This document shows, piece after piece, positions 1 to 56,513 of a DNA stretch of 64,000 nucleotides (position 1 is its first letter; the number at the start of each line of letters is the position of its first letter). The stretch is from Albugo candida. Its lineage: Eukaryota. The position numbers and the translations under genes are program-made. Location: positions 496,001 through 560,000 of the forward strand of contig JBDOQK010000010.1 in the NCBI GenBank assembly GCA_040437565.1, read 5' to 3'. Under the pieces are notes generated by a model that saw only the letters and a program-made list of their open reading frames with translations, searched no databases and was not told where the DNA came from.

Positions 1-3000
1 GCTTCCCAGTAAGCTGTTCATTTTCCAGATGCGTATTGTGAATATGAATGGTTTTTGTCACCCCATTCAAGTACCAGTACACATATACAAACGTAGACCG
101 TTCATTAGGTCCTCTGGGTGGTAAAGTGAAGCTATGCGTTTGATTTGGATGGTCAATCGCAATTTCCAACTGCAGGTCTGGTACAGGAATGGCCGAAAAG
201 GATAATAAAATCTTTCTTTCAAGTGGATGCAGAAAATAAGCTTCGTCCCATCCAAAACACAAGCTATCGCCCGACGCAAGGGTCTGACGCACACCTCGAT
301 TGTACTCGCAAATTGTCCTCCTTCCATCCTCAGAAGCCGGGCTAAGCTCGCCCGCTCCACCAGCAAATTTCTGTTGTATATAGAGAGTTACGTCATTCAC
401 TGAATTGATGATACGATACAAGGGATACTGATCGCTTTCTTCGCTGGTTAAAAGCACGGAAACCTGACCCGAATCTTCCGCACGCACTTCTACACGAATC
501 ACATGAACTTTGTTTGAATTAAGACTCGTGAGTTTGATTGCGGCCTCTCCAATGTCGTGTAAGGAGAATTGACCGCTCCATCGCCACGTTTCAGGGGAAC
601 TATCAAGAGATTTCAATCCGTTTGCTCCAGATAGTTTTAGAAGACGAACACAAAAGTCTGTTGGGATAGCGCTTGAGTTCCAATGAAATGGTGTACAAGA
701 ATGACAAGGAATAAGTGTCCCCGTACAAGCCGCCTGATTAGGCGTGTCGGCGAGACTGAAAAAGCTGGGGATATCTTGTCGACCACTTCGGATTCCTTGT
801 GATGAGCAGCACAGCAATTCATGATCCGTGTGATTTGCGAAAATGTATCGTTCATAAAACGTGACATTTGTCATGCCCCATGTGTCGACTTGTTCGAGCC
901 GGACGGTGAGATCCTTCCACAGCTGATTCGATTCATCAAGAACTCTCAGGCTCTTTGAGAAGCCGCCAATAGCAGCCTCCATGTTGACCTGCGAGTTGCT
1001 AAACTGAGAAGCACGAAGGCTGTTTTCCATTCCCACATTGAGAAGATTCGTCGATGACACGTAGTAAGCGCTTGAATGTGTATTACTGGCTTCCTGGTCA
1101 GAATTGAGATCATCTTTCAATGAGGCAGCATTATGTGCTTCCATTTCACGCGTCCAACCGCTTATACTCATTCTTTTCTCCATTCCGACATCGCGGGTAG
1201 AGCGTTGTGGATTTTTAAATGCATTTAATTTTGCATGCAAGAATTCTAATCGTGGAGTGTCACAGAACTTGATGTTTTGATGATGATCCGTATCCTCGAC
1301 GGTCTTCGGCTTACTCGTGATTCTGTTTTGCATCCCAAAAGTGGATGTCGCCAAATTATACATTGATTTGACTGCCACTCCTACTGCTGCTTGTGGTGAT
1401 TTCATCCGATTTATATCACATGGCTCGAATCGAAGGGGAAGATCTACTGTCTCATTACGTATTACAAACCTGGGCTGAATGATCACTTTTTGCGTTGTAT
1501 TAGAGCCCGGGGACCGAGTGGGTTGAATCACGTTTAAGGTCGCTGCACGCATGCAGAAATCCTGCACGGTACACAGCGTTTGTTTGGAATGACTCGTGGG
1601 TATTGTGGCTGTGGTAGGAGCTGATGCTCGAGTCGACAATCCTGAAGGCTGTTGCTTTTCATTGGTAGTGTTTTGTAAGCGTGACAGTGGTGACGAAAGA
1701 AAATTCGCAGCCGCTGTAAATGCGGATAAAGTAATTGGATGATCGAGCTCGGTAGAGAGTAGGAATAACTTGCTCCAACTGTCACCAGTGATAGAAATTG
1801 AGCAAAACGTTTCTTCGGTAAGGGACGAATATGTCAAATTGAGCTTTCTCTGTGGCCCTACCTTCTCCGAAGAAACAAGGTGAAAGCATCCTCGATCTTG
1901 CCCGGTAGATGATTTCAGTTTCTTGTAGACAAAGACCACCACGTAAATGGTCACTGGGCACTTATTCTCGAAACTCACTGGAGCCTGAAGTCGGATGGAA
2001 GTGAAGTGATTATCAGAGCCTGGAGATAGTGCGGGGAATGTTTGTGTGATATACTTGAGGTAAAATCCATTAGCTTTACAGCTTTGGCTCTGGTGAAGGG
2101 GCTTTGTGCCGTCCAGAATCCTTTGACATTGACAAGTATAATCGGATAGCATTAAAGGAGACGTAATACTGCTTTCAAGTACCATCTTTGATTTACTGCT
2201 AAGGAAAATCTCATTGCTCCAGCGATGTTTTTCTGTGTCTTGATTTGAAGCGCTGTAAGGACGCGTTACGAGCCGGATAGCGTCAGACGTACTGGTAAAC
2301 AAAGTGACTGGAATTCCGCGAAATCCGTGTGGTTCTATAACCCCGATGTCGAGTACCGGGTTTGTTCGATCGACAATGACTCCAAAAGATAAAGGACTAT
2401 CTGTATCATTATATACTCGGGCAGTCGAAGAAACAATGATATTTCTGTACCCCAAAGTCGTCGAGATCTCGAGAAGCACTTGGATCGGCTTCACCGACAA
2501 TTTCACAAGCGAACACTCAGTATTTTCAGGTGATGTCATCGTCTTCACTTGCGTAGGACGCAAGGTATACACATAGCTTCCTACACTCTGTACATTAACA
2601 TTCGTCATGGGTAACCAGGATTCATCTTCCCCAAGACTAAAAGTGAATGCGTGATCACGTGTCTTGGTTGGATGCATGGCAGTAGGAAGCTTGAGCGGAA
2701 CTTTTTTCCCAGGAAGAAGTACTTCTTTGGCAAAAGACGAGTGTCGACTTTCTCTTTCGTAACTAAGTACTCGTGAACGACCTAGATATCCCTCCTGACT
2801 ATTGCCATTACCAAGAAAAAATGTAATTGGAATACCACAATCATTCTCAAAGTAGAATCCGGATGAGATGACACTTGCGGTCGGAATGTGAGTATCTTCG
2901 ATCTTTTGGGTTGATGCGAGATGCTCAGCACTTTGCTTGAATTGTTGTATTTTTTTGAGTATTTTGCACATGGTATCAAGCAGAAAAGGAGAAAAGTTGA

Positions 3001-42541: not shown

Positions 42542-43824
42542 ATGTTAGTGGAGGCTATCAAACGCACTTTGATTCTATCGAAATCATGCAGGATAGCTAC
42601 TTTTCAATCACTATTTACCACTTGTGGGAGAACACTTCAATTAATGGAGCGAAAGAAGGTTACCGCGACGGATCTCCGCGTTTTGAAGCTTAGAGGAAAA
42701 CCAATTACAATGATTACAGCATACGATTATCCATCCGCCGTGCACGTCGATCTTGCGGGGTTTGATGTTCTTCTTGTCGGGGATTCGTTAGGTATGGTTG
42801 AACTGGTAATGCGAACAAAGGCTTTGAATTCTGCTTTCGACTGATCGTGTTTTATTCAGGGAATGAGCACGACACTGCCCGTTACTCTGGACGATATGAT
42901 ACACCATTGCAAGGCTGTGAAACGGTAACGAGAACAGCATTAAATTTATGAGCAAACACATTCTATATATCATATTTGGTAGCGGCGCCACACGACCGCT
43001 AATTCTCGTGGATTTGCCTTTTGGAACGTGTGAAGGCTCACCTTTTGAAGCTCTTTCAAACGCTCAAAGACTACTGAAGGTGATATTGTGGCCCTCAAGT
43101 CAATGTAGCTTTATAATACGACGACGACTTTGGTGTAGGAAGGCGGTGCAGATTGCGTCAAAATCGAAGGAGGTCAGGAACGAGCAAAGACGAGTGAGAA
43201 ACATCAAGATGTCGCCTGAGATGATCGTATTAAGATACATTTTGCGCAGTCAGAACAATTGTAGATGCGGGAATTGCGGTTGTGGGACATGTTGGACTTC
43301 GTCCGCAGCACATCAGTGTCATGGGTGGGTTCCGAGCACAAGGGCGAACAGCTGAACAAGCTGAGAAAATCATTGAGGATGCTATTGCTATTGAAAAAGC
43401 CGGTGCTTTCGCTCTTGTGATTGAATGTGTACCATCAACAGTAGCGAAACACATCACCGACATTCTAGAGATTCCAACTATCGGGATAGGAGCAGGACCG
43501 CATACATGCGGCCAAGTGCTAGTTTTCCATGATCTATTGGGAATGCTGCAACACCCTCATCACGCTCAATTCGTTCCAAAGTTTTGCAAGCGATACGCTG
43601 ACGTAGGACAAGCAATTCGAAAAGGTTTGGAAAATTATCGTGACGACGTGGAAAATCGTACTTTTCCGAGCGAGCAGTACACTCCCTATAAAATGACACA
43701 AGAAGAAGAAGAAAAACTGCAACTTCGTGTGTCAGAACGATTTGAGCCGCGTAAAAAGAACGCAGCTGCACCATCCAGCGATGACAAAACAATGCAATCA
43801 GAACCGCCCATCAAATTGTACTGA
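42542..43824 (+). CDS. panB: 3-methyl-2-oxobutanoate (ketopantoate) hydroxymethyltransferase with probable mitochondrial presequence, multi-exon
   Basis: [49 protein letters not shown]...[19 protein letters not shown]. Confidence 0.95.
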
Positions 43825-44478: not shown

Positions 44479-45766
44479 ATGGGCCGTCATCGCACGCACC
44501 GTAAGAATATAAAAAAGCGCAAAAATCGACGGTTTTATGCGCAGCTGTACGCGTCCTGGGTGGAAAAGGTAAGTGGGATTGTGATCACATAAAGTCATTG
44601 ATGAAGGATACTATGTCAACGTTCCAAGCAATCTGAGAATCAATGGGAAATAGAGCAAATGCAGAGCGAAGAAATCAGCCAACGAGTACATGAAAAGTGG
44701 ATACGCGAGACAACGAAGAGTCAATATCTAAGCCGTCAAAAGCGGAAATCGACTCAGCGCCTACACCGCAGAAAAAGCGGCTGTTCTGTTGGCGTGAGAG
44801 CAAATGTAAAAGAAGTGAATGGTCGTAATATCACTGCGTCAGCAATTGCACCGAGTCGTGCTGGACACATCACTAATGAGTACAGTAGCAATCAAATTGA
44901 TATTCTGCTAGTAAGCGAATCTCTCCATCATCTCAAGAAAAGAGACTTATTTGATTATCGATACTTTAGATTCAAGAAATTCAAAAGAGAGCCTATAAAG
45001 CGATGCAGGATGCAACGGTTCGTGCATACTTGAGCTGCTTTGAGGGCATTGATATGATGCGGACCCTTTGGAAATCAAGGTTCCACGAAGAATACCAGCG
45101 ATACCATGTCCGTTTTACACTCGGACAGGTTGTTGTCCTTTTGGAAAGCATCGGTGCAACCGATCTCATCAAACACCCAGATCAAGTAAATTCCTGCTGC
45201 TTAAGGTACCCTCAAGCGCCACAATTTTTTTCCGATTGTAAACTTGCTCGTATTAGCATTTTTGTATGGATGTTTTACTTGTGGAAGCGAGAGATACCGA
45301 GCTGATGTATGACTTAAGTCTATATTTGTCACAGATTGCTTCAATTGTGCGTATGGAGGTACATGTGCTTCATCGAAACTAGTTCATAGCGTTTCCTGAC
45401 TTCTTACAAAATTTTTAACAGTTGGTGCAGAACCTTGCAAGTCATCTACGCGGTAATGTCTACATCGAATTCGAGTCGGAAGAGGGAGCCAAACAGGCTT
45501 GGCAATCACTCCGTGTGCGTTACTACAAAGGGCGCATTCTTGATCCCGAACTGGTGCCGATGGTCGATTGGCCAGCTAGTGTGTGTGGTGCTTTTATGCA
45601 AGGAGCATGTACACGAGCAAATGAGAATTGCAACTACTTACATCTGTACCATTGCAAGCGAACGAGTATTACACTGAAAAAGCGAAAAGCAGAAAAAGGA
45701 GAATGTTTTGAAGATATTTTGCAATACTTTGAGCAGCCTTCGAGCACAAATGCACAAAAGGGATAG
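44479..45766 (+). CDS. ZRSR2: U2AF35-related protein (CCCH-UHM-CCCH), multi-exon
   Basis: Basic N-terminal extension; CPFYTRTGCCPFGKHRCNRSH; NLASHLRGNVYIEF...RYYKGRIL...WPASVCGAFMQGACTRANENCNYLH. Middle exon boundaries uncertain. Confidence 0.8.
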
Positions 45767-46140
45767 CATTGAACGTATAATGCCTCATTGGCATTATTCA
45801 CACTAAGCTATCATGATATCCGATAAAATCCACCGAGCCAGTACACATATCAACTCAGTGCGCTTGGCTTATAGAGTACAATATTTCAGGTAGCCTTCCG
45901 ATGATTTGATAGCCTGTAAGCAAATCGAAGAGTTCTGGATCGTACAATCTCATGGTATCATATGAAAAGTGCTGGCACAGAGGGTACAGGTCGAGAGCTG
46001 CCATCTTACAACGTCTTTTGCGGTGCTCTGTATGATTTCATCGATGTCAATGCTTCCAAATTCTTAACGAGGAGTCACAATGTCGTAGAACATCATCATA
46101 TGATCTCACATTGACTGTGCTAGATGGCAAGCTCAATTCT

Positions 46141-49100
46141 CTAAGACTCGCGTCTCATCCATTTTTGAAATGTCTCGTAAGTCCATAAGGATATGCCGAC
46201 AGAAGGAACAACTCGAATCGTATTCACGACAAACCCCCGATACAAATTGAATGGATTCCAGCGAAATTTCCACCGCTGTGATGTCTGATCTCCCGGCTTG
46301 ACCGCATGTGATGAAGTATCAATAGATCTGAGAAAGCAATTCCATGTCGAATGATACTGTGGAAAATGAGTCTCTGGATGCCAATTTCCAGCAACTTGCA
46401 GTCTTCGTCGCATGAGATCAAACGGATATGCGTACGCTTGTGCGACAACTGCGGCTGTCATTGCACAAAGAATCTGACCGCGGCCATTCGGTCGATTTTC
46501 TGGTTCATCTGTAGGATCTTTTCCTTGAGAGATATCATTGTGATATTGCAGAAAAACTGGTCGCCAAAACTCATAAGTCACATAATAACTCCCGAAATAA
46601 ACGAATGCTCCAAGATTCGAAGCGGTTGAACCGTGGAAAAAGCCTCGGAAGTTTTCTTTTGCGTAAAGGCTTTTGACAATTTTTTTGATTGGCGTCATAG
46701 AAGAGCTCTGCACACTCATTCTCGTACGCAAAGTATCTAATGGGAGGCACAAAGTATTCACAACAATTCCAATGAGGCCACATGCGAGAAAGTTTGTGTC
46801 GAGCCCAATGAAGGATATAAGTCGCTCGTGGCTGCTGATTTGCTTATCTCCATTTCTAGAAGATGGCACTGGGATTATACGTTGACCTAACGTATCGTAC
46901 ATGGTGCTTGTAAGGAATAACTTCATTGGCAACGCCGGTAACAACCACAGACAATGAGTGAGATTTCCGGCAAAAAGGCCTGTGTCATTCACGTCAACTC
47001 AAGCTCCAAACATTTGTGAATGTCATCTTACCTCGCCATCGATTCAGCCTGTACATTTGGAGCAGCCCTCGTACGATACCTCTCTGTGCGAAATCGTAAT
47101 GCAAGCTTGAAGCGGCACCTTTGAGCGTCGATATCTGTTTCAAGATCTTTAATCGGTCCAAAGGAGCACAGATTGTCCTAGCAACAATACCGGCAAAAAT
47201 GGCACCAGCTATGCCCAGAAAGCACGATAAAGCTTGTGTACGTTGTAACCTCATGATACCAGTTTCGTCTTCATCTTTTTCAAGTGCTGGCTTCAAATAC
47301 TCCCAGTCTGTACCACTGGGGCTATGCCGGCTTGTTAAGCTCCATCCTGTTTCAAAATCGTGCAACATCTTTGATACTTTTGCTTTGATTGTTGAGTTTT
47401 GTGCTCCAGTGGATGAATATTGATGCCGATGAGGAAGTTTTTGGATCTGGACGACGTTCCAGAGCTGACGCAAATCGATCAAATCTGACTGCAGAGTGTC
47501 CAAGAAGGCCAGAAACTCCTTTCTAGCTTCTGATATTCCCAAGTTTTTGTTTCGGCTTCTCGACTGTGATTGCTCGTGCAAAATTCTCGTGATACCACGC
47601 ACCAAATCCTCGTAGGTGACATAGTGATTTCCCAAGCTGGCCATGGCTACTTCCGTCTCAGCTGGGAAATTAAGGGAAAATAAATCTCGATAGAATGAGA
47701 GTCGAGCACTGTCGGTCAAAGAATTGCCACTCTGTTGACATCCCGCTCTTTGCCAGATCATCATAGCCTTGGTCAAATCTTTTAGCTTCACATTGCAGTG
47801 ACTTCCTCCAGTTGGGTACGCACCAGTATCCAGATCTTGGCTGCTGCTGTGCAATGCACGGAAGGCTGCTTCCGGCAATAACTGATCCACTTGGGCGCTG
47901 CTTAACGCGATATGAAAGTGAGCAAACTGTGAAAAATTCACCAAACCGGATGAATCTCGAAGTAATAGAGCCAACGCGAGCTGGATTGCTCGTTTATTTC
48001 TTTCCTTGTCACAATTTGCTTCATCTATCAGATTTTCTTTCCGGTTCTCCAAGGTTTCGTATTCGCTCGTTGTTGCTGGCCAAGAGGTGAGCAATCTTTC
48101 AAGATCTGCCCGAATCATAAAATGCTCTTCTCTTTGGCTAGTGAGGCTCTGATTCGATGTTTTTGAAGCTTCTGAGGTCGTCGGACGTCGAATGCTGCTC
48201 GCACGCTTAAAGAGCTCGTACAAAGAAGCCGATCCGCTACGTGTGATAGTGACAAAAGAAGCTCGATCCATACACCAGACTTTTGTATCCTGTAAAGCTG
48301 TGACCGTAGCCCCCCTCCTGCTATTGTACAATAAAGCTGCTTCACCAAATGTGCTACCTCGTTTTAGGGTACTATCGACGAAAGAAGCTGCCGTCGATGC
48401 AGCCCGATCATCGTTTTGGTCAATCAGAGTTTGTGCTTGAAAGAGTTGTGGGGGTTTGCTGCGAGTTACTAGACATTCTCCATTCTCGATAAGATAGAAG
48501 TAATCACCAACATCTCCTTGTTGCAAAATTCTACTCCCAGCAAGATAGTTTAGCGGGAAGCACTTTCGTACCGCTAAAGCCTTTGTTCGAGCGTCCAAAG
48601 ACTCAAATAACGGATGTTTGGATACTGTTTCCATTAGAAAACGATATTCTTGAACCGAATATTGGCTGGATGGATGGGCCTGAATAGCTTCTTGAAAAGC
48701 TGCTTTGTCTAGCTTCCACAGCACAGCCGTTTTTTTCTCAGCCGGCTTGGTCGATAGCTCCATTTCCGGCATTACACGCACTGTCGCACGTCTCGGTGTG
48801 TCATAAATTAGCGCTGACATCCCAAATGCACTGGACGGGCCATTCGTGCCTACAACCACGTATTCAGGCTCGCTCGCTAGAGGGATCGACTGCCACAGTT
48901 CCTTGGGCAACACCGTATTCTGTTCCAAATGACGTTGAGATTGCGATTCTTCATCTGTTCTACCATCTTCGAGTTTTTGCAGTGCTGAATCCCTGTAATT
49001 CACTAAAACTTCGCACTCTCCTTCTTCTATGATATAAAACCCATCGCCTTCCATTCCTTGATAAAAAACGACCTCGCCTGGATCTAGTTCGACACGTCGA

Positions 49101-50149
49101 AATTTTTTGACCAGTTGCTGTAACTCCATGATATCTCTATTATGGAATAGAGGATGGCGCTTAAGAGCGTGAAGAATCACTTCAGAGGCTAGAAGATCGT
49201 TGTTTCTTTGGCTCGAGGCTTCACAGCTCTGTTCGCGTCGTTGATACTCAATCGCATTAGAGCGTAGCTCTTGACGAAAAGAAAGCTCAGGTAGTAGCGT
49301 CGTCGTCTGCTGTAACTTCACATAGTGTGACTCATCGGTGGAAGAAAAATGCTTGGGTGCATACAAATGAGCTGACGGATACGGTAACAAAATTCCTAAA
49401 TGCTGATACAACGCAGCAATCAACTGTGAGCAAAAGACTTTATGATGACGCTCAATAGGAGATATGGCTTCTTCACTTTCCTTTCTAGAGTTTTTATGAG
49501 GATATAGAGTCTCTAAGCGCTGCATTATCTCTTGTGCCTTCATCTGAGTACTTTGCATTTCTTTAGAGAGATTGTTCCTTTCAAATAACGTCATATTGGA
49601 ACGATGATCCATTTCGCATTGAAACTGTTTGATCGCCTTTTTGAGATTTACTAGTTCGTTAAACAGTGCTTCATGCTGCATCCGTGTACGTCGTTGGTAG
49701 CCTGCATTCACAAAACGCTCCAAACGATCCTCATATTTGCTGTCTTGAACGAGCTGGACGAATTGGTGAGCAGCCTTTTGGAATTCTGAAGTACGATGAA
49801 CTTGCAAGCGCCGAATGGAAATTTCGTTCGCGCGTGACCGAAGAATCCGATCCTCAAGTGGTCGGAGTTTGACGCCACTGAGAGTAGCTTCCAGTAAATG
49901 AAGCTCGGAAACGTTTTTCTCCGACTCTGCTGATGCCGGGACGCGAACAATGACCCCAATATGGTCCCAGTCCGTATTTCCAAAGAGTTTGGCACATGTG
50001 CATATAATTCCGCCGTATAGATCCATTTGAAAGCAGGGCCGGTTGAACAAAACAATATCCCCAGTGTCGATTTTGGCGTTTTCGATAAGCGATTGCAAAA
50101 GCTTCTTATCCGTCTCTGCGTCATATTGCGACTTTGTTAAGGGCTTCAT
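46141..50149 (-). CDS. Fusion: permuted NlpC/P60 papain-like domain + 2 cNMP-binding domains + EF-hand-like motif + mitochondrial carrier (~1318 aa; intron 46980-47031)
   Basis: TGDIVLF...WDHIGV...LLEAT...KYE...VFCSQLIAALYQHLGIL; FGMSALIYDTPRRATV and FGEAALLYNSRRGATV; DSSGLVNFSQF; three carrier signatures PLDRLK, PLDTLR, PFDLMR. A 52-nt GT-AG intron joins the two ORFs in frame (WRG|LFAGN). Confidence 0.88.
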
Positions 50150-50781
50150 TGGAATCCTTTGGTAGCGCCGATTTTGCGGTGGCAGAGCTATAAATTAGAC
50201 AAGAGGCCGACTATGGTAACCGAAAAGGACCAGTACGATGCTTTGCGTGCCACGCGACCGAAAATCATTAAAACATCAAAAGTAATTACCCAGGAGTGCT
50301 ACAGCATTCGGGAGCATTGCGATCAATATTCTCATGTGATTAGGTAGCTACAATAGCGGAGACTTGAGCTATAAATGCGTTTTTTGTAGTCGTGACATTC
50401 GACGACTATCATCCGCGACTTCCTTTTAAGATAGATTAGCTCATGTAGGGTAATTATCAAGATAGTGAATTTGCATTCTACAGCCTATTGTCATCTCGAA
50501 TAGCAATGCAGTCGGATCAGTCTGAGCTATACGGTAGACTAACGTCTGCATGCCCGCACTACCTCGATCTCGTTGTTTGAGCTCACGTGCGCTTTGTATA
50601 ACGTGATATCAATAAAATCGGCACGAGCAATTCAGTTTGCAGATGCTAGGCTCTAATCTACTCGATAAACTTGTGAATTGACAGCAAAGAGAGAAAATTC
50701 CAGTGCTTAGCAAGGTATTCCGACGCGAATTGTAGCTTAGATTCGGTAATTTCGAACAAATATCAAGTACGACTGGTTGAT

Positions 50782-53089
50782 ATGGGAGACATGCACATGA
50801 CAAGTGATCCCAAGCAGCTCCTTTTGAAAACACTTGAGCAGTACAATTGGTTAGCTGCTATTATACGATTCTTATAATACTTGACTAAATTTGTCTATGG
50901 GAGTAGCATGCCTGTAGGTGCGGCCCAAAGAAATCAGAATTTGTGTGATTTTGTTCTCGAATTCGAAACAGTTGTGATCATCACAGCAAAATTATTAAGC
51001 ATCATTTCATTTCAATCAAGAAGATCACATTATTTGCCACATTCACATCGTAATATACTGGAAGTCACACAATGTTTGGTCAAATCCGAGCATAAAGATG
51101 CATACACTTTGCCTACGTCAGTGGCGGCTCGTCATCGATTGGGAGCAGAACTGGCGCAACTGATTAAGGTTTGGGGGAATCAGAAGGAAACATAGACATG
51201 AACCTCCTTGCTCAGAATGCTTTATTTTGCAGGAAATAGGATACACCGGAGAGTGCGGATACAATCACTTTCTTTATCCAAATGAAAAAGAGACTTTTGA
51301 GCTTTTTTCTTGGCTGGTAGGACAAGTCAATCCATCTGCCGAATCGTATGGAAGCGACGCGACAAATCAGGAAAATACGCTTGAGCGCACAGCGCCAGGC
51401 CACAAAATGCTTACCTCTCTTGGCTTACAATTTAGTAAACAGGAGATGCCGGAAGAAGGTTTTTTGTCTGGAAATTCCATAAAGATCTGTCTACAATCTT
51501 GGAAGAAGCAAAAAACATTATACGCGTGGCCGAATACACAGATCCCAGCTTTACATGGATATCAGAAGCTTGCATCGAGAACAGGTTTTTTGCCAAGGAC
51601 GTCATGGCACAAGGGTACCATTTGCTCTAAAATTTTCGATCAAGATGGCGCACCACCCGATCTTTTTGATGGGTTACCGCTTGAAGCATGCAGAATTACT
51701 TCACTTAGTGAAACATTGATGCTGAACACGAATAGCAGCGGTCCATTAGAAAATGTTTTGTTATCTGAAAACCTGATCTCTTATGGGTCAGATGAAGAAA
51801 TAATGAGTTGTATAGAGGCACACAAATCTTCGCACGACACAATGTCTTCAGATCATGATCCGAAGGAAGAAGTGTCTGACGAGAAAGTTTTTTTTACCGA
51901 CACAATTCAGGATTTCAAATCAATAGACGTCGACCATCCATCATTGAGTGCTACACAGGAACACGTGCCTCGAGATTGTAGCTTGGTAGTATGCGGACTT
52001 GAGGTACCAGCTTACCTTACATCCTCCACACGTATGATAAACGCGGTATTGGGTTTCTAGGTCGATCCTGCGCAAACGATGATGGACAGGATGAGACTGG
52101 CACAATCACAGTCTAACAGCATGGAAGAAGTCGGCGACACATTGCAAGAAGAGGAGAAACAGATCGAAATAATAAAGGAACGAATCGCAGAAATACAGCG
52201 TTCTGGACACACATTACAGAGAGAAGTTTCACAATATCGTAAACTTGTGAAAATGATAGTCGACCCTGAGAGCAACATTGGAAGTCTGAAAGTACTACGC
52301 GACCGAACTGAGTCACAACTGTTCACTTTTACCAAAGAATGGGAGCAACATCAGGAAAGGTTATCGGAGAAAGAGACAGTGTTGGAGATAAAGCGACAAG
52401 ATCACCAGAGAGATCATAATCACCTTATTATGTGCCTCAAGCGAGTACGACGAGAGCTAAAGCAAGCCAAATTAGTGCTGCAAGAGAAGACAAAAGCATT
52501 ACAGGAAGTAGAAGATATTTATCAGCACTTCCCGAAGACGAAATTGACACGAAAGGGATACATCAATGGAATTCTCGAAGTGATCAAACAGATTCACAAG
52601 CAAAAGCAAGAAATTTTGAATATTATACAAGATATACGCTCGGTACAAAAACAGCTCAACCTACAAGCTGAAAAGCTCAAACGAGTAGAAACAATGGGTG
52701 ACGAAAAACTATTTCGAGTAGCGCTGACTTCCTTGGATTCTGCTCAGCCAAATCCATTCACATCAGCTACCACCTCTTCGACCGTTGTATCTCTTTTATT
52801 TCCTTCGGCTTCTTCCGACAAACCCTCTATCGAATTAGGCAACAAAAGCCTACTCATTGAAAATTACAGAAAATTCACTGAGATACGTCAATTGTATGAG
52901 GAGCTTTTTTGCCTAATAGATCGCATTGGTAAAGCTGAAGATGGATCAAGAGGTCTCAGAAATTGGGTATCTCAGGCAGAAAGCAGGGATTCGGGCCGTT
53001 TTTTGCAGCACATTACTAACGATATTGCGAGCATCAGAAAAGAAAACGAGGAGCTACTAAGAACGTGCAGCGAATCGCCAGTCCTGTAA
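50782..53089 (+). CDS. CCDC22: Coiled-coil domain-containing protein 22 (CCC/Commander complex), multi-exon
   Basis: LPTSVAARHRLGAELAQLIK|EIGYTGECGYNHFLYPNE; RKGYINGILEVIKQIHKQKQEILNIIQDIRSVQKQLN...DEKLFR. Confidence 0.88.
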
Positions 53090-53200: not shown

Positions 53201-54109
53201 TCAATGAGCAACGTGAACTCGAGCTAGGTGATGCTTTGTAGAATGCTGAGATATGTTAAGATGTTCTTTGGGCCTAGATCCATTCCTGCCCGTGTTATTG
53301 CCTGACTTTCCGAAGCTACCAAAACGAACAACAACGGGACGAGGAGCTTCTCGTAGACGATGCAGCACCTTGGAGAGCCCCAAACCATTCAATTCCTGTC
53401 CATTAACGGCCAAAATGAGTGTTCCATTCTGGATTTCAGGATACTGACTCGCCTCTGAGTTCTTCAGGCATTCTCGTACGATAGCGAATTGCTTCCTTTC
53501 ATCGACACCAAGCTTCATTCCAATCGATTGCTGCTCGAAAACAATATCGAAAACAGCTTCAAGTCCATCCATTACCTTCCGATTTGTCATCATGATCGGA
53601 CTGGTGGTCAGTTCAGGAAGATGTTGTGGCAAGATATTTCTACCATTGCCATAATTTACCGAGTCGGTATTTTGGTTGGCAGCATCACTGTGCCCATAAC
53701 CGCGTGTTGTCCTTCTGCTCGGTCGACCTACGGCCGGATCGTCGTAATCATGTTCTGGTAGAAAATCAAGACTTTTTCTCATATCAACTTGATCTTTACG
53801 ATGAGGTTGATTGTCGCGTGAAGAAGTTCGACTATATTTTCGTCTTCCGGATTTCGGCGACAGGTAACTGGTGGTATCTTGTGTAGCTTCATCGATTGGA
53901 TAAGAGGTGCATCGATTGCGCGTGCTCGAGCTCGAGGCCTCTATTTCTATTTCCGGATTTACTTCGCAGTGCTCCTGCTTTTCTTGCTTATCTTTCCCAC
54001 GATATGATCCCAGTATATACGATTTCAACAGATCGAGGAAAGCTTCTTGTGGGCTATCATCACTTTCTTTGCGCGGATGGGCCTCATCATGATCGTCTTG
54101 CCACGACAT
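53201..54109 (-). CDS. Low-complexity protein with a C-terminal PDZ-like domain
   Basis: FDIVFEQQSIGMKL...AIVREC...IQNGTLILAVNGQELNGLGLSKVLHRLREAPRPVVVRF. Start uncertain (54109 or 54232). The copy at 55065-55885 is a gap artefact. Confidence 0.75.
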   Translation of the reverse strand: MSWQDDHDEAHPRKESDDSPQEAFLDLLKSYILGSYRGKDKQEKQEHCEVNPEIEIEASSSSTRNRCTSYPIDEATQDTTSYLSPKSGRRKYSRTSSRDNQPHRKDQVDMRKSLDFLPEHDYDDPAVGRPSRRTTRGYGHSDAANQNTDSVNYGNGRNILPQHLPELTTSPIMMTNRKVMDGLEAVFDIVFEQQSIGMKLGVDERKQFAIVRECLKNSEASQYPEIQNGTLILAVNGQELNGLGLSKVLHRLREAPRPVVVRFGSFGKSGNNTGRNGSRPKEHLNISQHSTKHHLARVHVAH

Positions 54110-56513
54110 ATCGTGCTCCTTGCCTCCAACGATGGCAAACGCGTACAACTGTTGGAAAAATAAGGTATCTGTCCCTTTCTCCGCAAAAATAGCCGGGTAA
54201 AATACGGGAGCGGCACGTAGCCAACTGAACATCTCACTAGAAAGTAACAAGTACTACAATCAGTATGAGGTGGCGTATAAGGAGAAGTGAAATCTAAACT
54301 ACTTTCGAGATGAATTGAGCTGAGTTCGGGCTTCAATCACGTCCATGGATTGCGCACTTTTACCTATCGACTGGAATAAATCGACCACTAAGCATAGAGA
54401 GTTGAGAATACATTTGAACGAATACTACGCCAAGACAAAACAGACCTTGCGCTCGAGTGCGATTATATAAAACCTGTAGTGGTTCACAGTCTTTAATTTG
54501 AAATGGGGAACGCTGCTGTTGCTGAATAGCGGTCGCTTGTTCAAGAAGCCAGTCGGCTTTTTGAGATGAGTCGCACGTAATATCGTGCGTTCGGGTCCGT
54601 ACAAAGAGACTATGAATAGTACATTACATACAGAGGAAATGATGATGTATACTGTTAAGTGATAGGAAGACAGCGCCGACGCATTGTACCGCACGGTTAT
54701 AGCCTCTCCCATTGTTACTAGATCGAAGCTGAACGGAATGATTCGAGAAAACTTGCAAAAAAAAGTACTCGGTCATATTTCATATATTAGCAATATGCGC
54801 AACAAAACACAGCTGCATATCATTTTACACAGCTCTGCACACAACGCTACATTACATAAGGCCAATTGTATTCTAATTCTACGCGCAAAGCATTGTGTGT
54901 AGGCATTTGAGTATGTCACCATTGGCTTCGCGTAGCTTGCGCTCCGCTTGTTGAGTAGTAATTTNNNNNNNNNNNNNNNNNNNNNNNNNNNNNNNNNNNN
55001 NNNNNNNNNNNNNNNNNNNNNNNNNNNNNNNNNNNNNNNNNNNNNNNNNNNNNNNNNNNNNNNNTGGATTTCAGGATACTGACTCGCCTCTGAGTTCTTC
55101 AGGCATTCTCGTACGATAGCGAATTGCTTCCTTTCATCGACACCAAGCTTCATTCCAATCGATTGCTGCTCGAAAACAATATCGAAAACAGCTTCAAGTC
55201 CATCCATTACCTTCCGATTTGTCATCATGATCGGACTGGTGGTCAGTTCAGGAAGATGTTGTGGCAAGATATTTCTACCATTGCCATAATTTACCGAGTC
55301 GGTATTTTGGTTGGCAGCATCACTGTGCCCATAACCGCGTGTTGTCCTTCTGCTCGGTCGACCTACGGCCGGATCGTCGTAATCATGTTCTGGTAGAAAA
55401 TCAAGACTTTTTCTCATATCAACTTGATCTTTACGATGAGGTTGATTGTCGCGTGAAGAAGTTCGACTATATTTTCGTCTTCCGGATTTCGGCGACAGGT
55501 AACTGGTGGTATCTTGTGTAGCTTCATCGATTGGATAAGAGGTGCATCGATTGCGCGTGCTCGAGCTCGAGGCCTCTATTTCTATTTCCGGATTTACTTC
55601 GCAGTGCTCCTGCTTTTCTTGCTTATCTTTCCCACGATATGATCCCAGTATATACGATTTCAACAGATCGAGGAAAGCTTCTTGTGGGCTATCATCACTT
55701 TCTTTGCGCGGATGGGCCTCATCATGATCGTCTTGCCACGACATATCGTGCTCCTTGCCTCCAACGATGGCAAACGCGTACAACTGTTGGAAAAATAAGG
55801 TATCTGTCCCTTTCTCCGCAAAAATAGCCGGGTAAAATACGGGAGCGGCACGTAGCCAACTGAACATCTCACTAGAAAGTAACAAGTACTACAATCAGTA
55901 TGAGGTGGCGTATAAGGAGAAGTGAAATCTAAACTACTTTCGAGATGAATTGAGCTGAGTTCGGGCTTCAATCACGTCCATGGATTGCGCACTTTTACCT
56001 ATCGACTGGAATAAATCGACCACTAAGCATAGAGAGTTGAGAATACATTTGAACGAATACTACGCCAAGACAAAACAGACCTTGCGCTCGAGTGCGATTA
56101 TATAAAACCTGTAGTGGTTCACAGTCTTTAATTTGAAATGGGGAACGCTGCTGTTGCTGAATAGCGGTCGCTTGTTCAAGAAGCCAGTCGGCTTTTTGAG
56201 ATGAGTCGCACGTAATATCGTGCGTTCGGGTCCGTACAAAGAGACTATGAATAGTACATTACATACAGAGGAAATGATGATGTATACTGTTAAGTGATAG
56301 GAAGACAGCGCCGACGCATTGTACCGCACGGTTATAGCCTCTCCCATTGTTACTAGATCGAAGCTGAACGGAATGATTCGAGAAAACTTGCAAAAAAAAG
56401 TACTCGGTCATATTTCATATATTAGCAATATGCGCAACAAAACACAGCTGCATATCATTTTACACAGCTCTGCACACAACGCTACATTACATAAGGCCAA
56501 TTGTATTCTAATT

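Follow-up and report, generated by a model that had tools for sequence, protein, structure and literature searches.

A predicted SLC25 carrier fused to tandem cyclic-nucleotide-binding domains and a permuted NlpC/P60 domain in Albugo candida and other eukaryotes

As regulatory heads of mitochondrial carriers, reviews describe the Ca2+-binding EF-hand domains found on the ATP-Mg/Pi carriers (APC) and on the aspartate/glutamate carriers (PMC12410006, PMC6283063), and in the APC this head is reported to gate the carrier by means of an amphipathic "locking pin" helix (PMC5369052, PMC6283063). Among the permuted NlpC/P60 enzymes, Escherichia coli YiiX, in which Xu et al. named H49, E64, Y115, and C128 as catalytic, was crystallized with a fatty acid in its hydrophobic S1 pocket (PMC3142127); Tox-Act1, a type VI secretion system (T6SS) effector, is a phospholipase and a lipid-directed member of the permuted group (PMC12994826); and LnsA, which is required for lipoprotein N-acylation, has YiiX as its closest predicted homolog (PMC7387801). 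Here, we describe a gene of the white-rust oomycete Albugo candida in which modules of both kinds are joined. It lies in a 64,000-nucleotide stretch (contig JBDOQK010000010.1 of assembly GCA_040437565.1, positions 496,001 to 560,000 of the forward strand), referred to here as the window, and all coordinates given are those of the window. When the exons were joined in a script, 50149..46141 on the minus strand formed a single two-exon gene of 3957 nt, coding for 1318 aa with a lone terminal stop. An original prediction, made from the letters of the window alone, had read four modules in it, which are listed here as we now define them.

47032..50149, minus strand: exon 1, codons 1 to 1039 and the first base of codon 1040, with one open frame running through the C92 domain, both cyclic-nucleotide-binding domains, and the EF-like domain into the first carrier helices.
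46980..47031, minus strand: intron of 52 nt, GT..AG, inside carrier repeat 1.
46141..46979, minus strand: exon 2, the remaining carrier, residues 1040 to 1318, with the stop codon at 46141-46143.
49265..50077, minus strand: permuted NlpC/P60 (YiiX/YaeF, Peptidase_C92) domain, residues 25 to 295.
49961-49963, 49889-49891, 49733-49735, and 49430-49432, minus strand: putative catalytic codons of His63, Glu87, Tyr139, and Cys240, respectively, from the alignment to YiiX.
49454..49699, minus strand: helical hairpin insert, residues 151 to 232, between Tyr139 and Cys240, common to all C92-bearing members.
48650..49183, minus strand: cyclic-nucleotide-binding domain A, residues 323 to 500, with the cassette Arg kept and Met444 at the Glu position.
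48200..48649, minus strand: cyclic-nucleotide-binding domain B, residues 501 to 650, with the canonical cassette FGE603 ... R611 R612 G A T.
47435..48004, minus strand: degenerate EF-hand-derived domain and subsequent long helix with the invariant W897, residues 716 to 905.
46144..47239, minus strand: SLC25 carrier, three repeats, residues 971 to 1318, the span including the intron.

The gene model rests on two stop-to-stop frames of the minus strand, one of 1066 aa at 46994..50194, in which the first in-frame ATG stands at 50149, and one of 285 aa at 46141..46998, which meet at the junction ...CGA TGG CGA G/GTAAGA...ACACAG/GC CTT TTT... (GT at 47031/47030, AG at 46981/46980). As exon 1 alone is open from Met1 to residue 1039 and already contains the enzyme, the sensors, the middle domain, and the first carrier helices, the fusion is independent of splicing. 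The public A. candida protein P0003 is of equal length and 99% identical to the window protein (20 substitutions in 1318 residues, no indels), which indicates that the window DNA comes from A. candida and from an isolate other than the source of P0003. Contigs from four public runs (X1, X2, X5, and X9) were compared with the window over 45600..50700. In X1 and X2, which belong to the same study, one contig each (5295 and 5286 nt, respectively) covers the whole coding sequence with exactly the 52-nt intron missing (CT..AC on the plus strand); a contig of X9 over 46815..47222 retains the intron, and in X5 the intron position falls outside the contig cover. X1 and X2 are read as RNA derived only because their contigs miss the intron. 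These contigs begin at about 50207 and 50198 and continue beyond the stop codon into a convergent neighbor, and with such ends and an uncovered stretch upstream, neither the transcript start nor the 3' end is defined. The Albugo gene is real, spliced, and transcribed. The claim of one two-exon gene for one polypeptide is borne out by the open exon 1, the precise skip in X1 and X2, and the same-length P0003; both contigs are spliced exactly at 46980-47031 and run continuously through the coding sequence, rather than as separate messengers for carrier and head.

Two side observations concern the same data. In this stretch, the contigs of X1 and X2 depart from the window by 2 bases and those of X5 by more, so the public data evidently include several isolates or races of A. 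candida. In addition, several Logan oomycete proteins of about 990 to 1050 aa (P0006, P0007, P0010, P0011, and similar ones) end near 1000 aa without a precomputed Mito_carr match in Pfam; they look like unspliced calls of exon 1 only, which suggests that the intron position in carrier repeat 1 is widely shared.

The N-terminal domain had been predicted to be a permuted NlpC/P60 enzyme with an intact catalytic set and with His before Cys, and the comparisons with YiiX support this. The Pfam match to Peptidase_C92 is weak in Albugo itself (25.0 bits, residues 50 to 133, below the gathering cutoff of 27), but PF05708 is precomputed on most orthologs, and the algal members reach 29.9 to 45.7 bits. 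A profile of 16 N termini of the family matches YiiX with an E value of 2.8e-5 across the part that bears His, Glu, and Tyr, and once the insert columns are removed, hhalign (Prob 93%, E 3.5e-7) pairs H63, E87, Y139, and C240 with H49, E64, Y115, and C128 of YiiX, residues that we confirmed at those positions in the E. coli K-12 yiiX sequence. In the alignment of 32 oomycete orthologs, W61, D62, H63, E87, Y139, F239, C240, S241, and Q242 are invariant (32/32), and across lineages the catalytic tetrad is kept in 16 of the 17 aligned C92-bearing sequences, all of which have the helical insert. The AlphaFold2 model of residues 1 to 300, built with 28 aligned sequences (mean pLDDT 83.0, pTM 0.73), places His63 at the start of strand 63-70, Glu87 within strand 82-89, and Cys240 at the start of helix 240-250; the insert of about 75 aa, first described as a coiled coil, takes the form of a helical hairpin in the model, its two helices spanning 154-182 and 188-215. 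When this model was compared with the PDB by Foldseek, the top six rows were B. cereus BcPPNE 3kw0 and YiiX 2if6 (E 5.7e-4 to 3.4e-3, prob 1.00), and the next row had an E value of 0.24. VIA-align gave a Z of 14.8 for 3kw0_A (root mean square deviation [rmsd] 2.8 Å, 162 of 189 residues aligned, model 16..292) and of 14.4 for 2if6_B (rmsd 2.6 Å, 147 of 180 aligned, model 25..293), while the remaining rows (Z of at most 10.3) match the hairpin at 151-231 only. The model therefore superposes on both solved enzymes over the His-bearing and the Cys-bearing halves, as a juxtaposition of H63 and C240 would demand, and the two halves are predicted to assemble as they do in those enzymes. A phmmer search of the PDB with the N-terminal 300 aa alone returned only a chance match to a ribosomal protein (E 0.94), and a single-sequence scan of viral contigs with the N-terminal domain found no relative. 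As a lead only, an Atlas feature search placed the N terminus nearest to C92-like clusters of Nucleocytoviricota and bacteria (0.92 to 0.93).

The two cyclic nucleoside monophosphate (cNMP) domains of the protein kinase A regulatory subunit (PKA-R) or PKG type were also correctly foreseen, save that site A in Albugo is without the cassette Glu. Pfam cNMP_binding matches the translation of exon 1 in three stretches (5.7e-25); the family profile, compared with the PDB, finds PKA RI-alpha over both cyclic-nucleotide-binding (CNB) domains at about 1e-43 to 3e-43 and PKG at 4e-42, and the Albugo CNB region alone finds Plasmodium PKG at 1.9e-24 and RI-alpha at 2.7e-23. Site B appears complete: F601, G602, and E603 and, further on, R611, R612, G613, and A614 are invariant in 32/32 oomycetes, and the full cassette is present in nearly all other members. 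Site A retains F442, G443, R453, R454, A455, and T456, and the residue at its Glu position varies, being Glu in Phytophthora and Globisporangium, Asp in Lagenidium and the Saprolegniales, Met in both Albugo isolates, and Leu, Met, Phe, Thr, or Val in the algal members. The linker that leads into CNB-A (residues 296 to 322) has no invariant column among 27 and an identity of 11 to 13%, with no shared basic or inhibitor-type motif. As no inhibitor-type motif precedes CNB-A, the protein is, judged by its sequence, not a PKA regulatory subunit.

Between the sensors and the carrier, the original prediction had seen an EF-hand-like loop. The EF-hand origin holds, but it applies to a whole degenerate domain rather than to a loop, and the canonical ligands are lost in all loops (0/6 oomycete sequences with the canonical 12-residue loop pattern). 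Pfam finds no EF-hand in Albugo residues 660 to 960, the only EF-hand row (0.13) falling in the helical insert as noise, and none of the 54 oomycete relatives carries an EF-hand Pfam accession. In non-oomycete members, EF-hand matches (E up to 0.01) are present in six of the nine scanned, and the loop of the second EF-hand is canonical in Galdieria, Rhodosorus, P0077, P0079, P0084, and P0189. The connection was made by profiles in two steps: hhalign relates the oomycete middle region (residues 700 to 905) to the non-oomycete one (Prob 96.8%, E 2e-10), and the latter to the N-terminal domain of seven EF-hand and carrier proteins (Prob 98.3%, E 2.4e-14), in a match that extends beyond the last EF-hand. 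The model of residues 712 to 965, from 37 sequences (pLDDT 80.0, pTM 0.73), shows helix-loop-helix units and, after them, a long helix. In the VIA wide search, it is matched by calcineurin B fusions (Z 7.8 and 7.3) and GCAP-3 (Z 7.0, 139 of 165 aligned) and also by calaxin, CIB2, troponin C, CBL2, the APC regulatory domain 4zcu (Z 4.1), and the citrin N-domain (Z 3.9), with at least 29 of the 50 best rows being EF-hand proteins by title. An Atlas feature search, again as a lead only, put the middle region nearest to EF-hand clusters (0.76 to 0.85). We conclude that the middle region is an APC-type EF-hand domain whose Ca2+ ligands have been lost in oomycetes. Because oomycetes have no canonical loops, the Ca2+ control that had been entertained is unlikely there, the region being a degenerate remnant of the APC regulatory domain. 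The long helix is modeled with confidence at 870-903 (model residues 159 to 192) and bears W897, which is invariant in the oomycete alignment and which MAFFT aligns to a Trp located after the final EF-hand of three APC-type proteins; the helix has an unremarkable hydrophobic moment, and its identity as the counterpart of the APC locking pin helix is suggestive, no more.

The C-terminal carrier is matched by Pfam Mito_carr in three stretches of exon 2 (3.6e-30) and in a further stretch of exon 1 (residues 980 to 1016). The best match of the family profile in the PDB is the bovine ADP/ATP carrier 1okc (AAC1) (6e-39, chain residues 3 to 292), compared with 3e-20 for UCP2. All three repeats have the Px[DE]xx[KR] motif of the matrix network (PLDRLK, PLDTLR, and PFDLMR), with P996/R999/K1001, P1119/D1121/R1124, and P1225/D1227 invariant and R1230 present in at least 90% of 32 orthologs. 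Substrate-site positions were taken from the alignment to 1okc and the fixed spacing of the G-N...P motif; the residue numbers of the AAC1 contact points are those we take to be the accepted ones, and they agree with the alignment coordinates. K22 of AAC1 corresponds to R991, which is invariant; G182-I183 and Y186 of contact point II correspond to Gly-Ala and Tyr; R234-236 correspond to R1230-1232; and R279 of contact point III corresponds to R1295, with Lys in other oomycetes. At contact point I, R79 of AAC1 corresponds to W1051, and the position is Trp in Phytophthora, Globisporangium, and Lagenidium, Lys in Saprolegnia and Aphanomyces, and Arg in most algal members.

Relatives of the carrier alone were sought with several queries. 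The seven best carrier-only matches of the Saprolegnia ortholog, taken from 1.84 billion representatives, have about 470 to 490 aa and all combine EF-hands with three carrier repeats; six of them are stand-alone APC-type proteins, and the seventh, P0217, was rejected as such, being an N-truncated fragment of a fused family member. A word-based search with the Albugo carrier returned, besides its own fragment, only nine short proteins of 24 to 26% identity, and since this query was too divergent, the carrier of the Cyanidium member was used instead. Among the best 120 short relatives of the latter, the functionally specific names were ADNT1, SCaMC-1/2, SLC25A24, and the Joint Genome Institute (JGI) label "SLC25 23/24/25/41"; P0307 bears a thiamine carrier name in UniRef, the other names were generic, and no ADP/ATP or coenzyme A (CoA) carrier name appeared among these 120. 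A quick tree of 39 carrier rows put all 14 C92-bearing rows and the P0217 fragment in one clade (SH-aLRT 98). In a careful tree of 37 rows, from which the longest branches, P0116 and P0086, were left out, the fused-member clade has support of 92/96 and stands within a group supported at 100/100 together with ADNT1, APC, and the CNB-EF carriers; the outgroup consists of SLC25A42-named and two unnamed rows, and the branching order inside the 100/100 group is unsettled. The carrier accordingly falls in the APC/ADNT1 adenine-nucleotide group, which upholds the class first proposed (ATP-Mg/Pi, CoA, and adenine-nucleotide carriers) and narrows it to ATP-Mg/Pi and ADNT1, while the substrate becomes less certain with the loss of the basic residue at contact point I; it is above all that Trp which casts doubt on a plain ATP-Mg/Pi specificity.

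The fused design is not peculiar to this genome or to the stramenopiles. Of the 62 matches of the Albugo protein, 54 are relatives beyond the CNB part, and those with names are all oomycetes (Albugo, Phytophthora, Peronospora, Hyaloperonospora, Bremia, Plasmopara, Peronosclerospora, Pythium, Globisporangium, Lagenidium, Aphanomyces, Saprolegnia, Achlya, and Thraustotheca), with the architecture found in every oomycete genus sampled. An exhaustive search (24,968 proteins at E up to 0.001, 140 of them at E up to 1e-30) added proteins of 30 to 35% identity with matching N termini. C92, cNMP, and Mito_carr domains were all found by Pfam in eight of nine non-oomycete matches scanned, and the ninth, P0088, is a fragment whose cluster contains a 1083-aa Rhodosorus protein. 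The named members are the red algae Cyanidium caldarium, Galdieria yellowstonensis, and Rhodosorus marinus, the basal streptophytes Chlorokybus atmophyticus and Mesostigma viride, and the cercozoan Papus ankaliazontas; none from animals or land plants was returned by the searches. Fused orthologs are thus abundant, with the same architecture shared by over 50 oomycete proteins and by distant lineages, and we are dealing with an old, widely spread, uncharacterized eukaryotic family in which the carriers of the fused proteins share a common origin. In the databases, its members are labeled "hypothetical," "cyclic nucleotide-binding domain-containing," or "mitochondrial carrier."

The family core is a carrier of the adenine-nucleotide group with a YiiX-type enzyme ahead of it on the chain, and in most members, that of Albugo among them, the CNB pair and the EF-hand domain stand between the two. 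Forms with fewer modules were also found. Three unnamed metagenome proteins, P0107 (589 aa), P0089 (592 aa), and P0103 (872 aa), have enzyme and carrier without a cNMP match in Pfam; the four catalytic residues are intact in P0107 and P0089, Asp replaces the Glu in P0103, and P0107 begins with Met and links enzyme to carrier by about 35 residues. CNB domains, EF-hands, and carrier without the enzyme occur in P0093, P0096 (from the ichthyosporean Chromosphaera perkinsii), P0106, and P0109, with two cNMP stretches in P0093, P0096, and P0109 and one in P0106. cNMP sensors on APC-type carriers are therefore present in a relative of animals (Chromosphaera perkinsii) as well. P0189 (1158 aa) has two canonical EF loops, one cNMP domain, and replaced catalytic residues (H to D, E to C, Y to C, and C to S), a natural "dead-enzyme" form.

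Identities between Peronosporomycetes and Saprolegniales differ widely from module to module. They amount to 58% for CNB-B, 53 to 60% for the C92 core, 46% for CNB-A, 40% for the carrier, 35% for the C92 insert, 27% for the EF-like domain, and 13 to 22% for the linkers, and the enzyme and site B appear to be the most constrained parts.

We infer the function of the fused protein from these observations, with cNMP regulation and lipid-directed catalysis both proposed by analogy. The best explanation of the whole, and to our mind a probable one, if only by a modest measure, is a carrier of the adenine-nucleotide group that is gated by cyclic nucleotide through an APC-like head and is coupled to an acyl-directed thiol enzyme. 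The head of about 960 residues, on the cytosolic or intermembrane-space face, would gate nucleotide exchange as the EF-hand head of the APC does. Because the EF-hand Ca2+ ligands are lost in oomycetes, the controlling signal there would most likely be a cyclic nucleotide at site B. The Cys-His-Glu(+Tyr) enzyme would most likely form an acyl-thioester intermediate and, like other permuted NlpC/P60 enzymes, could hydrolyze or transfer a fatty-acyl group of a membrane lipid or of a lipidated protein beside the carrier. Since enzyme and carrier stay fused even without the sensors, the enzyme probably has a task bound up directly with the carrier or with the lipids around it, and we infer that these two are the functional pair. 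The head might be more easily accommodated on a membrane that faces the cytosol, and carriers of this superfamily are known outside mitochondria too (PMC7408384).

Several observations weigh against this gated carrier, and they have to be set beside the alternatives. Site A is without the cassette Glu in Albugo and in the algal members, and 960 residues is unusually large for a head imported into the intermembrane space. The link of the middle region to the APC is indirect: hhalign gave no significant match when the oomycete middle region was set directly against the EF-hand domains of APC (Prob 0.8%), Foldseek found nothing with the EF-like model (best E 0.21), and the best VIA Z of 7.8 lies under the level that the tool itself calls trustworthy for helical models, so that we drew only on the agreement among the EF-hand titles. 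Of the folded modules, only the EF-like one is less conserved than the carrier, the carrier branch in Albugo is 1.68 long against a median of 0.57 in the careful tree, and the cytoplasmic [FY][DE]xx[RK] motif is complete in Albugo in one of three repeats (YEFWR in helix 4, compared with YDTLG in helix 2 and YETFQ in helix 6); the Trp at contact point I may mean a different substrate or impaired transport. Taken further, the Trp in place of Arg or Lys in these lineages, the long branch, the incomplete cytoplasmic network, and a carrier (40%) less conserved than the C92 core (53 to 60%) and CNB-B (58%) would suit a carrier that, at least in the Albugo/Phytophthora/Pythium lineage, no longer transports and uses its six helices to anchor a cNMP-regulated lipid-modifying enzyme in the membrane. 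We find this unlikely, as the three PxDxxK/R motifs, RRR 1230-1232, R991, Gly-Ala/Val with Tyr at contact point II, and Arg/Lys at contact point III are retained, 30 carrier columns are invariant across oomycetes, and the Saprolegniales have Lys at contact point I.

The head can be doubted in a similar way. The cNMP-like domains might bind another ligand or none and form an unchanging structural or allosteric scaffold, in which case cyclic nucleotide would not be the regulator; the replaced Glu of site A (Met in Albugo; Leu, Met, Phe, Thr, or Val in algal members) could be read so, and the CNB pair of Trypanosoma PKA is reported to bind nucleosides and not cAMP (PMC6440977). This seems quite improbable for a protein in which site B is the most conserved module, has the full Phe-Gly-Glu ... 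Arg cassette in 32/32 oomycetes and nearly all other members, and strongly resembles the cAMP- and cGMP-binding domains of PKA-R and PKG. The self-processing role once suggested for the cysteine enzyme, a protease that severs the head from the carrier, would draw on the intact catalytic set and on the amidases and peptidases among NlpC/P60 enzymes, but found no support here: the three linkers whose cleavage would release modules are the least conserved parts (11 to 24% identity, with 0, 1, and 0 invariant columns), they show no conserved site for a cut, and the solved relatives hold a fatty acid in a hydrophobic S1 pocket, with permuted members reported to be lipid directed (PMC3142127, PMC12994826). 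We consider such a protease highly improbable. Contigs alone are no proof of one RNA molecule, which leaves some room for an artifact of annotation or assembly that joins adjacent genes; this is scarcely credible given an unbroken frame of 1039 codons from Met1 into the carrier, an intron that sits within a carrier repeat and whose excision restores a conserved motif, and an identical module order in over 50 oomycete proteins as well as in distant lineages.

Beyond the cNMP-gated carrier as described, a bolder version can be sketched, which we hold to be doubtful as a whole. Among SLC25 carriers, it would be the first to be gated by the direct action of a cyclic nucleotide and not of Ca2+, with its own thiol acyl-hydrolase or -transferase that remodels annular lipid or deacylates a nucleotide-type substrate, for which acyl-CoA or acyl-adenylate would be candidates, at the mouth of the carrier, and it would be ancient and lost in animals, fungi, and land plants. 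If this were true, one polypeptide would sense a second messenger, process a lipid-linked substrate, and carry the nucleotide part of it across the membrane of an organelle.

No description of a cNMP-carrier or C92-carrier fusion was found in full-text literature searches, in keeping with the original statement that no characterized example was known. Such a fusion is also absent from the available portions of the carrier reviews PMC6283063 and PMC12410006 and from the main text of a survey of domain fusions in P. sojae (PMC2705460), whose list of 273 multidomain proteins may include this protein. What is new is a regulatory and catalytic head on a known APC-type carrier, not a new category, and the wide distribution softens the claim of uniqueness yet strengthens the case for the design being functional. 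The family points to a second, unexplored coupling of signaling to organelle nucleotide pools, and it gives the poorly understood eukaryotic YiiX-type enzymes a physical partner. As it is present in all the oomycete plant and animal pathogens sampled and none was returned from animals or land plants, it is a tractable subject for oomycete energy metabolism. Natural forms are at hand for comparing the roles of the modules: enzyme and carrier; sensors, EF-hands, and carrier; all four modules; and canonical or degenerate EF-hands.

The adjacent genes give no functional hint for the carrier fusion. At 44970-45766 (plus strand) are the open reading frame (ORF) pieces of the convergent downstream gene, which by eye is of the U2AF small-subunit type (CCCH zinc fingers around an RRM-like stretch), although the two pieces tried had no Pfam match at E up to 0.001; as the X1 and X2 contigs pass from the carrier gene into it, the two 3' ends abut or overlap. 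Further on, 43234-43824 (plus strand) matches the C-terminal part of Pantoate_transf (ketopantoate hydroxymethyltransferase; 1.6e-56, profile 122 to 259 of 259) and is probably one exon of a pantothenate-pathway gene. On the other side, two adjoining upstream ORFs at 51164-53089 (plus strand) match CCDC22 (N domain, 1.2e-8; coiled-coil region, 1.7e-31), and an ORF at 53201-54253 (minus strand) has a PDZ domain (2.5e-5). No tRNA or Rfam family was found in the 64-kb window.

Among the closest known systems are the APC/SCaMC proteins (SLC25A23, A24, and A25), with which the Albugo protein shares a carrier of the same 100/100 adenine-nucleotide group and an EF-hand-type domain and helix directly before it (by the profile link through non-oomycete members), and fragments of family relatives bear the JGI label "SLC25 23/24/25/41." It differs from them in about 650 extra N-terminal residues (the C92 enzyme and two CNB domains), in the absence of canonical Ca2+ ligands from the EF loops of oomycete members, and, in Albugo, in the Trp at contact point I; the fused family forms a separate clade and is not nested inside the APC clade. 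Of the short carriers that bear a name, plant ADNT1, which is reported to exchange AMP and ATP (PMC7408384), is one of those nearest to the Cyanidium member (37 to 40% identity) and falls in the same group, but it has no regulatory head whatsoever. The CNB-EF carriers with two CNB domains, such as P0096, have the same order of sensors, EF-hands, and carrier, with canonical EF loops, while this group (P0093, P0096, P0106, and P0109) has no C92 domain, and its carriers form a separate clade (97/95).

For the head, YiiX 2if6 and BcPPNE 3kw0 share with the Albugo domain the predicted fold (Z 14.4 to 14.8) and the order and alignment of His, Glu, Tyr, and Cys, and the Albugo domain differs in a helical hairpin of about 80 residues between Tyr and Cys, in being eukaryotic, and in its fusion to a membrane carrier. 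LRAT/HRASLS (PLAAT) and Tox-Act1, whose permuted Cys-His chemistry acts on fatty-acyl linkages at membranes (PMC12994826, PMC7387801), may serve as a model for the N-terminal domain, although they are other families of the superfamily and no sequence or fold match to them was seen. PKA RI-alpha and PKG have a similar tandem of CNB-A and CNB-B, matched across both domains, whereas the N terminus of the Albugo protein, compared with that of PKA-R, is a C92 enzyme in place of a dimerization/docking domain, with no conserved inhibitor-site motif and no kinase partner implied.

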